Of a stretch of 48,187 nucleotides of DNA, positions 35,222 to 42,321 are shown piece by piece. The translations under genes were made by a program, and so were the position numbers. Origin of the DNA: Nanobdellota archaeon (lineage in GTDB: Archaea > Nanobdellota > Nanobdellia > Parvarchaeales > Parvarchaeaceae). The number at the start of each line of letters is the position of its first letter. Position 1 is the stretch's first letter. The notes under the pieces were generated by a model. The model had not been told where the DNA came from. It was given only the letters and a program-made list of their open reading frames with translations, and ran no database searches. The stretch is taken from NCBI GenBank assembly GCA_021802505.1, contig JAJZXE010000004.1:1-48187 (forward strand), written 5' to 3'.

Positions 35222-36826
35222 ATGCAGACAAAGTTCGTAGTTGTTCTCGGATCGATAATGAGCGGTTTGGGCAAGGGCGTCGTATCCTCATCCATAATGA
35301 AGATTTTGGACATGTACGATTTTAAGGTTCTCCCGATAAAATTTGACGGCTATCTTAATTACGACTGCGGCACGATGAACCCATACCGTCACGGCGAGGT
35401 ATTTGTTCTTGATGACAAGGGAGAGGTCGATATGGACTTTGGAACGTATGAACGTTTTCTCAACCGCAGTCTGACCAGCAGTTCGTCGATAACCGGAGGA
35501 AAATTATTCGGAGAGATAATAGAAAAAGAAAGAAAGGGGGAATACTTAGGTGAAGATGTGCAGGTTATCCCCCACCTGACAAACGAAATACAGCAGAAGG
35601 TAAAAAACTTCGCAGCTAAAAACAAACTGGATTTCGTGGTCATAGAAGTCGGCGGCACGGTCGGCGATCTGGAAAACGGATATTTTATAGAGGCTATGCG
35701 GCAGCTTTCCTTGAAAGAGCAGGTCGTCTTCATTGACGTTACATATATTCCCAGGTTAAAGACCGTCGGAGAGCAGAAAACAAAGCCCACGCAGTCCGCG
35801 TTCAGAGCTTTAATGGCCGTGGGTATAAACCCTGATTTTTTGATCTGCAGGACAGATGGGGAGATGGATGAGAACATTAAAAGGAAGCTATCCATGTTTA
35901 CCAGTCTCGCAGAGGATCGTATAATAAACGATCCGGATATGGATTCACCGTATCAACTGCCCCTGTATCTTATAAACCAGAAATTTGACAGGATACTCCT
36001 GCATTCATTTGATGCGGATAACAAGAGGATAAACCTGAATAAACTTAAAAGATGGAATGAAAATGTCGATAACATAATCAGAAAGGACGGTAAAAAATTT
36101 ACGGTGGCAGTAGTCGGTAAATACGTCGAATTGAAAGATTCCTACGTAAGCGTAAAAGAGGCTCTAATGCACGCAGCCGGCAGGTTATCCGTCAATCTTG
36201 ATGTAAAATGGATAGAGTCCGAGCTGCTGGAAAGGAACAGTCCGGAAGAATCTTTAAAAGATGTTGACGGGGTAATAGTTCCGGGCGGTTTCGGTAAAAG
36301 AGGCATAGAAGGCATGATCTCCGCCATAAAGTATGCAAGAGAGAATAAACTGCCTTATCTGGGATTATGCTTGGGTATGCAGTTAATGACTGTGGAATTT
36401 GCAAGAAACGCATGCAACATGAAGGGAGCAAACTCGACGGAATTCAATGCGGATACAAAATACAATGTTATAGATATTCTTCCGTCTCAACTTTCCGTTA
36501 CGCAGAAAGGAGGCACCATGCGTCTAGGGTCATGGGAGATGGTGATAAGTGATAAAAATTCGATAGCCTTCGCTTCTTACGGTAAAAAATCAGTTTCGGA
36601 AAGGCACAGGCACAGGTATGAGCTTAATAACAAATTCAGGAGCATTCTTAATAAAAACGGGTTAAAGATAACAGCAACAACAAGAGACGGAAAATTGGTG
36701 GAGATAATAGAATGGAAAGATGGATTCGGTGTGGCTACGCAGGCACACCCGGAGCTAAAATCCAGGATAGAGCAGCCCGCTCCCCTGTTTTTGTCTTTTT
36801 TAAAAGCCGTCAAATCAAGAAAATAA
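35222..36826 (+). CDS. pyrG: CTP synthase
   Basis: 534 aa. N-terminal synthetase domain (VVLGSIMSGLGKG) and C-terminal glutaminase domain (GLCLGMQ, HRHRYE). Confidence 0.95.
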   Translation: MQTKFVVVLGSIMSGLGKGVVSSSIMKILDMYDFKVLPIKFDGYLNYDCGTMNPYRHGEVFVLDDKGEVDMDFGTYERFLNRSLTSSSSITGGKLFGEIIEKERKGEYLGEDVQVIPHLTNEIQQKVKNFAAKNKLDFVVIEVGGTVGDLENGYFIEAMRQLSLKEQVVFIDVTYIPRLKTVGEQKTKPTQSAFRALMAVGINPDFLICRTDGEMDENIKRKLSMFTSLAEDRIINDPDMDSPYQLPLYLINQKFDRILLHSFDADNKRINLNKLKRWNENVDNIIRKDGKKFTVAVVGKYVELKDSYVSVKEALMHAAGRLSVNLDVKWIESELLERNSPEESLKDVDGVIVPGGFGKRGIEGMISAIKYARENKLPYLGLCLGMQLMTVEFARNACNMKGANSTEFNADTKYNVIDILPSQLSVTQKGGTMRLGSWEMVISDKNSIAFASYGKKSVSERHRHRYELNNKFRSILNKNGLKITATTRDGKLVEIIEWKDGFGVATQAHPELKSRIEQPAPLFLSFLKAVKSRK

Positions 36827-36828
36827 AA

Positions 36829-36837
36829 TTATAAATA
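36829..36837 (+). promoter_or_regulatory. TATA-box-like element TTATAAATA, about 26 nt upstream of the micropeptide ATG
   Basis: The sequence and spacing fit an archaeal promoter driving a leaderless transcript that starts at or near 36859. Confidence 0.4.
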
Positions 36838-36858
36838 CTAATTCAGCGTAACTCTGGT

Positions 36859-36927
36859 ATGGCAGAAGAAGAAAAAGAAGAAAAATGCGGCTGCGGGTGC
36901 GGATGCAATTGCGGCTGCTCCGATTAA
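36859..36927 (+). CDS. 22-aa Cys-rich micropeptide MAEEEKEEKCGCGCGCNCGCSD (metallothionein-like candidate)
   Basis: ATG...TAA ORF below the ORF-track size cutoff, with its own TATA-like box. The TGC-GGN hexamer repeat varies only at Gly third positions (GGC/GGG/GGA/GGC) plus one AAT, which is the pattern expected under peptide-level constraint. Confidence 0.45.
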   Translation: MAEEEKEEKCGCGCGCNCGCSD

Positions 36928-36997
36928 TACTATAGCATTTTGTTTGAAAAATTGCAAACACTTATAAGTGATGAGCTGTTTAATACTGTGTGGTTTT

Positions 36998-37231
36998 ATG
37001 GCCTACAAATTTTCTTGCAGAGCAACCGGCCTTGACTGCGATTTTACGGCAGAAGCTGGGACGATGGACGAGCTTATGCCTAAGGTTGCAGAACACGGCA
37101 AGCAGGCCCATGGCATGGAGCAGATCTCAGATGAGACTATGCAAAAAGTCAAGGCTGCAATAACTGAGGAGCCAAGCAGTGAATCTGCCGGCAGCGAAGA
37201 AAAGGCTGACGAGACTTCTGGCAATCAGTAA
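36998..37231 (+). CDS. DUF1059-family small metal-binding protein
   Basis: MAYKFSCRATGLDCDFTAEAGTMDELMPKVAEHGKQAHGME matches the DUF1059 pattern (FxC...C.F......E.l...v..H....HG). It has an acidic C-terminal tail. ATG 36998 is preferred to GTG 36968. Confidence 0.7.
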   Translation: MAYKFSCRATGLDCDFTAEAGTMDELMPKVAEHGKQAHGMEQISDETMQKVKAAITEEPSSESAGSEEKADETSGNQ

Positions 37232-37307: not shown

Positions 37308-37793
37308 ATGGAAACTAAGCCTGATTCATACCTGGAAAGAACGCTTTTGTCGGCAGGTATGTCAATTGAAGAAGCCTCCTATTTGGAGGGCAGACTTTCA
37401 AAGTTTAGTTATCCTGGACATATAGCCGATAAAATAGTGTCGTACAAGAAAGGTCTCAAAAAAGACAGGAAATCGTTTTATAAGAAAGCGGTGGAAATGA
37501 TAAGCAGGTACGATTTCCCCGATTCCGTTGCTTATTTACTGGATAATATGTATTCGGTCAAAAAAAGAGATCTGCTTGGGACACTGGACGTGATCGGCAG
37601 CGACTATGTTTCAGAATATGTTAATTTCTTGGATATTGCCTATAAACGTTCCAAAGGCACAGAATTCCTTAAAGAGCTGTTTTCTTTGGATAAAATAGAC
37701 AGCGATTCAGCGAAAAACCTGATAAAAAGGGACGTTGAGAAGAGGGAAATAAAGGACGTGCTGCCAAAGGAAATAATTTCTATTCTTTATTGA
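37308..37793 (+). CDS. hypothetical protein
   Basis: 161-aa ORF with an ATG start. No motif recognised. Confidence 0.45.
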   Translation: METKPDSYLERTLLSAGMSIEEASYLEGRLSKFSYPGHIADKIVSYKKGLKKDRKSFYKKAVEMISRYDFPDSVAYLLDNMYSVKKRDLLGTLDVIGSDYVSEYVNFLDIAYKRSKGTEFLKELFSLDKIDSDSAKNLIKRDVEKREIKDVLPKEIISILY

Positions 37794-41244: not shown

Positions 41245-42321
41245 TCATCCCGCTTTCTTCTCAGCTTTCCTTACCTTAGCATTGCTTGCTTCGTAAAGCT
41301 CTATCACGAAGCTCTTGAAGCTCATGTCCCGTTTGTACAGCACGTTCCATAACGTCTGCAGGAGTTGTTCATAGACGAAATAGAAGAACCTTATCTTGAT
41401 CTCAGTGGACTTGGATTTTATCGTAGCTTCGTCCTGGACGCGGAAACCTGTCTCGATGCCCCATCTCTGCTTGTAAGTCTGGATGATGTTTTCAAGGTCG
41501 ACGTCGTCGACGTTGGTAGCGAAGCACCAGTCGAACTTCTTTCCGTTAGAAGGATCAACTATCCTCTTGAGCAGAGCGAGCGTAGTCTCCCCTTCCTTCT
41601 TCTCGCCGTTCGAATCCGTGAACTCGAACGCATGTCTCAGTTTTAACTTCTGGTCTTTTTCCATCTTCTCCAGTTCTTCCTTTACGTTCTCCTTCTTGGG
41701 CACGAACATCAGATAAGGATAGTTTGCGGAGCTCAAAGCCCAGAGCAGCTCCTTCGAATAGAACCCTCTGTCGAACAGTAACAGTTTGACGGACTTGACC
41801 AAAGGCTTGAGCAGCGAAAGGCAGAAAAGCACGTCTCTAGCCATGAATCCGCCCATTTCTACGGGTATCGTCAACAGCGGTATCTTCTCTTTGTTTTCGT
41901 AACCAACCATGGCACAGGTAAGGAACTTGAACTTTCCGGTGACGGCGTTCTCTCCAGTCCATCCGTGGATCCATCTTCCGCCGATCTCGCCGTAGAAATC
42001 CTCGTCTGTGTAATCAAAAGCCAGGACGACCTCCCTTTCGTTAAGGTTTATCCTGCTCCCTACGATCTTAAGACTTCTCAGGTAGCTGCCGTAGACGTCT
42101 TCCACATCAACCGCTTTTATCGCCAGATGCAGACTGTCGGCTTTGTCCCCGACCGTCTCGACGTAGGTGTTCGCCATCGCTGCCTTTAGCAGGTCCCTGT
42201 CGTAATGAAAACCGGACGGCGCTTTTTCCCGGTCAAGGTCCAGCGCCACGTCCACGAACAGGTCGACGGTCTTGGTCGTCTTGAACAGCTCCCTGGCAAG
42301 CGTCTTCTCGTCCATGCTCAT
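41245..42321 (-). CDS. DDE transposase (IS4/IS5 superfamily, DDE_Tnp_1-like)
   Basis: Candidate DDE residues lie in LAFDYTDEDF, LLFDRGFYS and YKQRWGIETGFRVQDE..K (Y-x2-R-x3-E-x6-K-like). 358 aa. Confidence 0.85.
   Translation of the reverse strand: MSMDEKTLARELFKTTKTVDLFVDVALDLDREKAPSGFHYDRDLLKAAMANTYVETVGDKADSLHLAIKAVDVEDVYGSYLRSLKIVGSRINLNEREVVLAFDYTDEDFYGEIGGRWIHGWTGENAVTGKFKFLTCAMVGYENKEKIPLLTIPVEMGGFMARDVLFCLSLLKPLVKSVKLLLFDRGFYSKELLWALSSANYPYLMFVPKKENVKEELEKMEKDQKLKLRHAFEFTDSNGEKKEGETTLALLKRIVDPSNGKKFDWCFATNVDDVDLENIIQTYKQRWGIETGFRVQDEATIKSKSTEIKIRFFYFVYEQLLQTLWNVLYKRDMSFKSFVIELYEASNAKVRKAEKKAG

Follow-up and report, generated by a model that had tools for sequence, protein, structure and literature searches.

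The 48,187-nucleotide stretch of archaeal DNA analysed here (the window) carries, directly downstream of pyrG, which encodes CTP synthase, an open reading frame (ORF) of 22 codons whose product, MAEEEKEEKCGCGCGCNCGCSD, contains six cysteines in an uninterrupted C-x-C run. This small ORF is very probably a real gene, selected for the peptide that it encodes, and the main role of the peptide is probably to bind metals through its thiolates in the manner of a metallothionein (MT), a reading to which we assign a probability of about 0.55. The ORF had been described in an earlier note made from the sequence alone, which proposed an MT-like function; our reading of the sequence and the ORF list agree throughout with the position after pyrG and with the sequence details given there. 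The elements on which the argument turns are the following.

36859..36927, plus strand: the six-Cys peptide gene, 22 codons from the ATG at 36859 to the TAA at 36925-36927, taken from the ORF list and from reading of the sequence
36886..36918, plus strand: the Cys-run coding core, TGC GGC TGC GGG TGC GGA TGC AAT TGC GGC TGC, six TGY codons alternating with GGN/AAT; presumed thiolate ligand set
36829..36837, plus strand: the TATA box TTATAAATA, at -30..-22 from the ATG of the small ORF
36938..36945, plus strand: the T-rich tract TTTTGTTT, 10 nt past the stop codon of the small ORF; candidate archaeal oligo-T terminator

The coding DNA, ATG GCA GAA GAA GAA AAA GAA GAA AAA TGC GGC TGC GGG TGC GGA TGC AAT TGC GGC TGC TCC GAT TAA, specifies an acidic nine-residue N-terminus (MAEEEKEEK), followed by the six-Cys C-x-C run and by an S-D tail. 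The mass of the window peptide is ~2.29 kDa, as calculated by hand from the sequence, and cysteine makes up 6 of its 22 residues (27%). The 48-kb window has a single instance of six TGY codons spaced 6 nt apart, none of 100 dinucleotide-preserving shuffles contains the pattern even with 1 mismatch allowed, and a scan of all six frames of the window found a C.C.C.C run in the small ORF only. At the DNA level, Tandem Repeats Finder reports an imperfect array of period 6 with 70% matches. The ATG lies 32 nt downstream of the pyrG stop codon, and 70 nt separate the small ORF from the next gene, which encodes a DUF1059 protein. A readthrough or frameshift extension of pyrG was also considered and is ruled out: the small ORF is in a different frame, and an in-frame TAA is present at 36832-36834.

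The host and its relatives were identified from the pyrG protein, a scan of species-representative genomes with which yielded 16 loci (designated below by L numbers). The ten closest full-length matches, at 78-84% identity, come from Candidatus Parvarchaeum or Parvarchaeota metagenome-assembled genomes (MAGs), including ARMAN-5, some of the ten being labelled 'Nanoarchaeota archaeon'. A further Parvarchaeota locus (L015) gave a partial match, 89% identical over residues 1-263, which ends before the position of the small ORF; the next group, at 56-61% identity, comprises Acidifodinimicrobium and Micrarchaeota. The exact pyrG protein of the window is recorded in 57 blocks of the assembly index. 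The host belongs to Candidatus Parvarchaeum (ARMAN-4/5 group), a genus of ultrasmall, acidophilic DPANN archaea, and the Thermoplasmata framing of the earlier note had to be abandoned on the evidence of these pyrG relatives. The sister genus of Parvarchaeum is Acidifodinimicrobium, the Parvarchaeales were first discovered in acid mine drainage, and genes for oxygen tolerance are a documented theme of their evolution; metals are never mentioned in this recent comparative-genomics study of the order (PMC10134863). Acid mine drainage itself is described in a further source as a medium in which contamination with metal ions is high (PMC12302457).

An ORF of 21-27 codons lies directly 3' of pyrG in 10/10 of the closest Parvarchaeota loci. 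The orthologue in L026 is MAEDDKESCGCGCGCGCGCSD, that shared by L035 and L036 is MAEDEKKEGCGCDCGCNCDCSE, and that of L025, the most divergent lineage with a pyrG protein 67% identical to that of the window, is MANEEPRKEEDKSCDCGSGCGCGCC; L038 and L008 encode the same peptide. In total, 14 distinct in-frame variants of 21-27 residues were collected from lineages at 67-84% pyrG identity. Their alignment shows M1, A2 and four Cys columns to be invariant, and exactly six Cys are present in 13 of the 14 variants, the remaining one (L006) having five. The spacing of the cysteines is altered in two cases in which all six are kept, C-S-C-G-C-NNN-C-G-C-G-C in ARMAN-5 and C-D-C-GSG-C-G-C-G-C-C in L025; a six-Cys count that stays fixed while the spacing shifts is what would be expected if a defined cluster stoichiometry were selected. 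Residues between the cysteines are small or polar, x in C-x-C being Gly, Asn, Ser or Asp. The invariant Met-Ala at the N-terminus is compatible with predicted removal of the initiator Met.

Codon positions and the proportions of nonsynonymous (pN) and synonymous (pS) differences were compared among the eight ungapped 22-codon sequences, a set from which three orthologues found later were left out. Variable sites at codon positions 1/2/3 number 2/4/17, mean pS is 0.60 and mean pN 0.062, and the ratio of the two is 0.10. TGC and TGT, and likewise GGA, GGC, GGT and GGG, swap freely between species while all Cys are kept; nonsynonymous changes occur only at the x positions (G/N/S/D) and, as E/D/N/K swaps, within the acidic head. 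This third-position bias, together with the retention of the cysteines, indicates that purifying selection acts on the translated peptide and not on the DNA. Furthermore, the spacer between pyrG and the DUF1059 gene is identical across six independent assemblies of the same species, and this identity, combined with the imperfection of the repeat, argues that the array is not a slipping microsatellite. The earlier note had favoured selection on the peptide over slippage, and had held that absence of the ORF from relatives or a hypervariable repeat would speak against it; the substitution pattern and the imperfect repeat bear out the former view, and neither of the two contrary outcomes was seen, since relatives carry 14 in-frame variants and same-species assemblies are identical.

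One locus illustrates what happens outside this constraint. In L039:3100-3215 (GCA_013285365.1, pyrG 79% identical), neither the TATA box nor the ATG survives, an in-frame TAA is present and only two Cys codons are left; DUF1059 is absent as well. This stretch looks like a decayed remnant of the small ORF, and such decay suggests that the sequence degenerates quickly once selection is gone. The end of the L039 contig bears an adapter-like sequence, CTGTCTCTTATACACATCT, and the quality of the assembly is uncertain.

A TATA element is found at the same distance from the ATG in 11/11 of the orthologous loci first compared, and also in L025, L026 and L035. Among the long ORFs of the window, TATA-like hexamers cluster at -27..-30 from the start codon (18/54 hits), so the spacing seen at the small ORF is the normal promoter geometry of this genome. 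These data agree with the proposal, made in the earlier note, of a promoter ~26 nt upstream in leaderless geometry, and the transcript of the small ORF is predicted to begin at or beside the ATG. The clustering at -27..-30 across the long ORFs implies, more generally, that many mRNAs of the organism are leaderless. At the other end of the gene, runs of T4-T7 are present ~10-60 nt past the stop codon in most orthologous loci, and transcription may terminate at these T-tracts.

As the earlier note had stated, the gene is unannotated: among the assemblies with gene tables, no call in the correct frame was found. The gene tables leave the interval from pyrG to DUF1059 empty in the six assemblies shown of this species, and have no call over the small ORF in L025, L026, L027 and L035. 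In L038:3137-3238 (GCA_021832485.1), a 31-aa ORF is called over the DNA of the small ORF in the +1 frame, MKKKKENVDAVADATVDVQIKFIRFFRNTYK (MKKKKENVDAV...), whereas the conserved frame encodes MADEEKEGKCGCGCGCNCGCSD and begins 6 nt before the wrong-frame call. Outside the L008/L038 lineage the +1 frame lacks a start codon, and it misfits the codon-position pattern. The L038 case is a concrete example of length cut-offs yielding a wrong-frame call, and the small ORF as a whole is a clean example of a conserved gene lying below the length cut-off of gene callers.

We next consider what the peptide does. It shows the sequence-level hallmarks of MTs: (i) its mass lies below the ~10 kDa that bounds these proteins; (ii) it is rich in cysteine held in conserved motifs of the CXC/CC/CXXC type, the CXC run being present in the 14 variants; and (iii) where MTs have few or no aromatic residues and His, Phe, Tyr, Trp and His are absent from all 14 variants. 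The MT-like assignment of the earlier note is upheld at this level, whereas metal binding itself stays a prediction. A set of six Cys thiolates suits a Cu(I)4S6 cage (as in Ace1/Mac1 and Ctr1), a binuclear M(II)2S6 site or two As(III)S3 sites, and its near-invariance in the family suggests that the cluster would be a defined one.

The mechanism that we propose is as follows. An autonomously transcribed micro-gene, with its TATA box centred ~26 nt upstream, would give rise to a leaderless mRNA ended by the T-tract just past the stop codon, and the ~2.3-kDa product would act as a cytoplasmic chelator whose six thiolates wrap a small polynuclear metal-thiolate cluster. A cluster of the Cu(I)4S6 type would be favoured, with M(II)2S6 (Zn or Cd) and two As(III)S3 sites as alternatives; the preference for Cu(I) comes from the analogy with fungal peptides and from the metal-laden character of acid mine drainage. 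In this way the peptide would buffer soft metals leaking into the cell, while the acidic head would keep it soluble or serve as a charge element. A hand-off to or from the DUF1059 protein would also be possible. We infer translation, metal binding, metal identity and stoichiometry alike.

Several known systems offer points of comparison. In the Cu4S6 clusters of Ace1/Mac1, of the Ctr1 C-terminus and of CopY, six Cys, largely in CXC motifs, enclose four Cu(I), a cysteine count that matches the one found here; these are, however, domains of larger regulators or transporters, sometimes made up of two chains, whereas in the Parvarchaeum peptide the ligands are nearly the whole protein. With respect to the fungal 26-aa Cu-thioneins and to the mycobacterial MymT, we regard the peptide as an analogue, not a homologue. 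The fungal family-8 Cu-thioneins (Neurospora crassa, Agaricus bisporus) have 26 aa and 7 Cys, form a single Cu(I)-thiolate cluster and were long held to be the shortest MTs; CXC is the Cys arrangement met most often in MTs, and Cu(I) coordination has been linked to small residues in between (PMC4755600). Like these proteins, the Parvarchaeum peptide is very short and gene-encoded, lacks aromatic residues and His, and carries its Cys in CXC motifs with small residues (Gly, Ser, Asn) in between. The patterns differ: family 8 follows X2-CXC-X5-CXC-X3-CXC-X2-C-X3 with 7 Cys (PMC4755600), and the Parvarchaeum peptides an uninterrupted CXCXCXCXCXC with 6 Cys. Unlike the fungal proteins, the peptide is moreover archaeal, has an acidic head and is shorter, its length being 21-27 aa and its ligand core 11 residues. 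It does not fall within family 8, since its Cys pattern differs and no match was found in PDB chains or in Pfam.

MymT, a Cu(I) MT of mycobacteria, was found in a previously non-annotated ORF, its up-regulation is required for copper resistance, and up to six Cu(I) are predicted in its solvent-shielded core (PMC7558416). Being prokaryotic, small, Cys-rich and encoded by an unannotated ORF, it is the closest precedent in kind, although the likeness is functional and conceptual only: MymT is about twice as large (4.9 kDa), bacterial and restricted to mycobacteria, and its function has been shown experimentally. SmtA/BmtA (Pfam Metallothio_Pro) are cytoplasmic prokaryotic metal-thiolate proteins that sequester Zn and Cd, a trait that the Parvarchaeum peptide would share if it acts as proposed here. 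SmtA has a zinc-finger-like fold, which is unusual among MTs (PMC7558416); the Parvarchaeum peptide, in contrast, is too short for such a fold and matches no Pfam profile. Finally, phytochelatins, (gamma-Glu-Cys)n-Gly, chelate Cd, As and Cu (PMC3600143). They resemble the peptide in being acidic, repetitive, Cys-bearing and of similar size, but they are made enzymatically from glutathione and have a gamma-linked backbone, whereas the Parvarchaeum peptide is gene-encoded.

A degenerate DNA pattern of the small ORF searched against metagenome contigs returned the ARMAN-5 contig and one unrelated Cys-rich sequence only, and against viral contigs none. The unrelated sequence, L018:113-265 (metagenome contig Ga0172379_10020179), encodes a 50-aa, 16-Cys protein, MADENQIKKDEKTCTCGCCGEKCGCSDGTCSCTCTCKECTCACDCCKKDK, which has no Pfam or NCBIfam match and lies directly upstream of genes for a DsbD_2-cupredoxin membrane protein and an HMA (CopZ-like) chaperone. 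A word search with this protein found no homologues. It shares with the Parvarchaeum peptide a MADEN... start, a K/E-rich head and CxC/CGC motifs including CGCSD, but it is twice as long, has 16 Cys and belongs to a different organism. The likeness may be convergent, as the search pattern demanded these features; judged by its sequence and its surroundings, the L018 protein is likely to be an unannotated MT in a metal-handling cluster.

The small gene has the following neighbours in the window.

35222-36826, upstream of the small ORF: pyrG (CTP synthase, 534 aa), Pfam CTP_synth_N/GATase
36962..36969, plus strand: TATA-like element TTATAAGT, upstream of the DUF1059 gene
36998..37231, plus strand: DUF1059 gene (77 aa), Pfam PF06348, E = 7e-21
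37308-37793: 161-aa protein, no Pfam match, TATA AAAAGTATTTATAT ~28 nt upstream (leaderless geometry)
41245-42321, minus strand: 358-aa ORF with a DDE transposase domain, PF01609, E = 3.7e-9

The small ORF is found directly upstream of the DUF1059 gene in 7 lineages: the window, L008/L038, L009, L010/L027, L026, L035 and L025. In L025, an opposite-strand gene splits the small ORF from pyrG, and the small ORF and DUF1059 stay together. In L008, L009, L010 and L025, the DUF1059 gene is preceded by elements similar to that of the window (cttataagtga, ttttataaagg, cttataaatga and ttttataagtga), which suggests that it has a promoter of its own. Cys7, Cys14, His33 and His38 are invariant in the Parvarchaeota DUF1059 proteins, examples of which are encoded at 36998-37231 in the window, L025:4887-5108 and L031:2501-2719, and one DUF1059 homologue carries the JGI label 'predicted small metal-binding protein'. 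The AlphaFold2 model of the protein is confident (pLDDT, the model's own confidence score, 83) and has the element order β-α-β-α-α-β; a Foldseek search of the model against the PDB gave nothing below E = 3, no relative by sequence was found in the PDB, and the literature on DUF1059 returned two incidental mentions only. Pairing with a 2Cys/2His protein lends weak support to the metal-binding reading. That the small peptide and the DUF1059 protein cooperate is a possibility that we consider doubtful.

The 161-aa protein, encoded 3' of either the small ORF or DUF1059, is conserved in the window, in L001-L007 and in L035. The transposase ORF marks an insertion sequence ~4 kb downstream of the small-ORF locus. 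The other neighbours are ordinary and include membrane proteins, a GH15 enzyme, an alcohol dehydrogenase of the Zn type and a protein with a SWIM domain. At two loci, L011:2190-2510 (Acidifodinimicrobium) and L028:4144-4461 (a further Parvarchaeota MAG, pyrG ~61% identical), a thioredoxin gene fills the slot after pyrG, its product having a MAEN... start where the CxC peptide has MAEE...; the peptide gene possibly arose in this slot or replaced its occupant, although the shared stretch is very short.

Several observations count against a metal-binding role. First, the putative assignment draws on composition and pattern only, and no homologue turned up in models or libraries: the peptide matched 0 families in Pfam (hmmscan, E <= 1), 0 families in NCBIfam (E <= 10) and 0 PDB chains (phmmer, E <= 10), and a phmmer search with the 30-aa in-frame extension 36835-36924 gave 0 hits at E <= 0.001 among 1.84 billion representative proteins, a result that is weakly informative because ORFs of 22 aa go uncalled and composition filters penalise such a query. 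A literature search on the string CGCGCGC returned DNA papers only. Second, no gene for a metal transporter, sensor or chaperone adjoins the small gene at any Parvarchaeum locus, and the P-type ATPase encoded nearby is of a non-heavy-metal type; no recognisable operator was seen in the loci. Third, the association with DUF1059 is incomplete: in the L001-L007 clade DUF1059 does not adjoin the small gene, and in some Parvarchaeota genomes the DUF1059 gene lies behind one for an aCPSF1-like β-CASP nuclease and has no CxC ORF in its vicinity, which makes the pairing frequent but not obligatory. Fourth, the decay in L039 suggests that the gene is dispensable at least in that lineage. Lastly, the thiol density of the peptide is high, and a Cys-rich peptide would be equally fit for redox roles.

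The last point underlies a different explanation, in which the thiols of the peptide make it a redox buffer or a sacrificial antioxidant in an oxidising, Fe(III)-rich medium, cycling between dithiol and disulfide or scavenging oxidants, with metal chelation incidental. The thioredoxin gene in the post-pyrG slot of L011 and L028 is in keeping with this idea, as are the oxygen-tolerance theme of the Parvarchaeales (PMC10134863) and the antioxidant roles credited to MTs themselves (PMC7558416). However, redox-active peptides normally carry CxxC or CxxxC in a folded context, and the strict set of six Cys in C-x-C spacing is a signature of cluster ligation, not of disulfide exchange. Nor is a reductase partner linked to the gene, the frequent partner being the 2Cys/2His protein. 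We consider a primarily redox role unlikely.

The small ORF could also act as a regulatory leader peptide (uORF), stalling of the ribosome at the Cys/Gly codons serving to sense the supply of Cys or Gly-tRNA and to govern whether transcription continues past the T-tract into the gene downstream. A frame of 21-27 codons with a run of one rare amino acid does resemble the leaders of bacterial attenuation, a T-tract lies past the stop codon, and a same-strand downstream gene is always present. Yet no conserved RNA structure or covariation was seen at the locus: the RNAalifold consensus is -7 kcal/mol, with only the GC/GU wobble changes that the repeat itself brings about, and no Rfam family matches the small-ORF locus, results that also led us to reject the idea of an RNA element. 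The downstream gene varies by clade (DUF1059 or the 161-aa protein), each with its own TATA, and neither of the two is a gene of Cys or Gly biosynthesis. Purifying selection, moreover, spans the acidic N-terminus and the S-D tail, for which a stalling leader has no need. A regulatory function of this kind appears very improbable.

Cys-Gly-rich cores are typical substrates of azole-forming cyclodehydratases (microcin B17-type), which speaks for the idea that the ORF encodes the precursor of a ribosomally synthesized and post-translationally modified peptide (RiPP), its Cys/Gly core maturing to thiazoles or thioethers and MAEEEKEEK serving as leader. The acidic N-terminus and Cys-rich C-terminus are superficially like a leader joined to a core. 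Against this, none of the genes called within 2.5-4 kb in the lineages examined encodes a YcaO/cyclodehydratase, radical-SAM enzyme, lanthipeptide synthetase, protease or exporter, and a 9-residue leader is far below the known lengths of recognition leaders. The conservation of M-A at the N-terminus and of S-D at the C-terminus is that of a finished small protein, and host-dependent DPANN archaea are, as stated in a passage of the Parvarchaeales study, very limited in biosynthesis (PMC10134863). There is thus little room left for a RiPP precursor. The earlier note had ranked a precursor or a regulatory micropeptide below an MT-like product, and the lack of a nearby maturase and of a conserved RNA structure supports that ranking.

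That the stretch is not a gene at all, being a neutral GC-rich microsatellite or a DNA or RNA element of the pyrG 3' region that is open by chance, would fit the period-6 repeat, the openness over the repeat of the +1 frame and of one antisense frame, and the +1 call by one annotation pipeline, but this view is already largely refuted by the third-position-heavy 2/4/17 variation in the proposed frame (pN/pS 0.10), by the ATG, stop and TATA spacing kept in the orthologous loci inspected, by the lack of length polymorphism within the species, by a repeat that is imperfect in DNA and perfect at the Cys level, by the confinement of the +1 start codon to the L008/L038 lineage and by the fast decay in L039 where selection was lost.

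Taken together, these results favour an MT-like peptide that would be a new, very short family with a putative function in a new domain of life. A 2013 review states that 'MTs are absent in archaea' (PMC3600143), in line with the remark of the earlier note that such peptides are essentially undescribed in this domain, and no use of 'archaeal metallothionein' or similar phrases was found in the library of papers that we searched. As a tentative proposal, to which we give slightly less than an even chance, the gene belongs to the first MT-type family in Archaea, shorter than any other genetically encoded one known at 21-27 residues with an 11-residue six-thiolate core, restricted to the acid-mine genus Parvarchaeum, invisible to gene callers and maybe forming a two-part buffer-and-chaperone module with DUF1059. 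If metal binding proves true, the statement of the review would be overturned, and the peptide would be a naturally occurring minimal six-thiolate cluster, one that could serve as a model of how Cu(I), Zn, Cd and As bind to thiolates and be put to use in engineering biosorption. It would also provide the first functional lead for the widespread, unstudied DUF1059 family, and it would account in part for the tolerance of acid mine drainage by host-dependent DPANN cells with reduced genomes.

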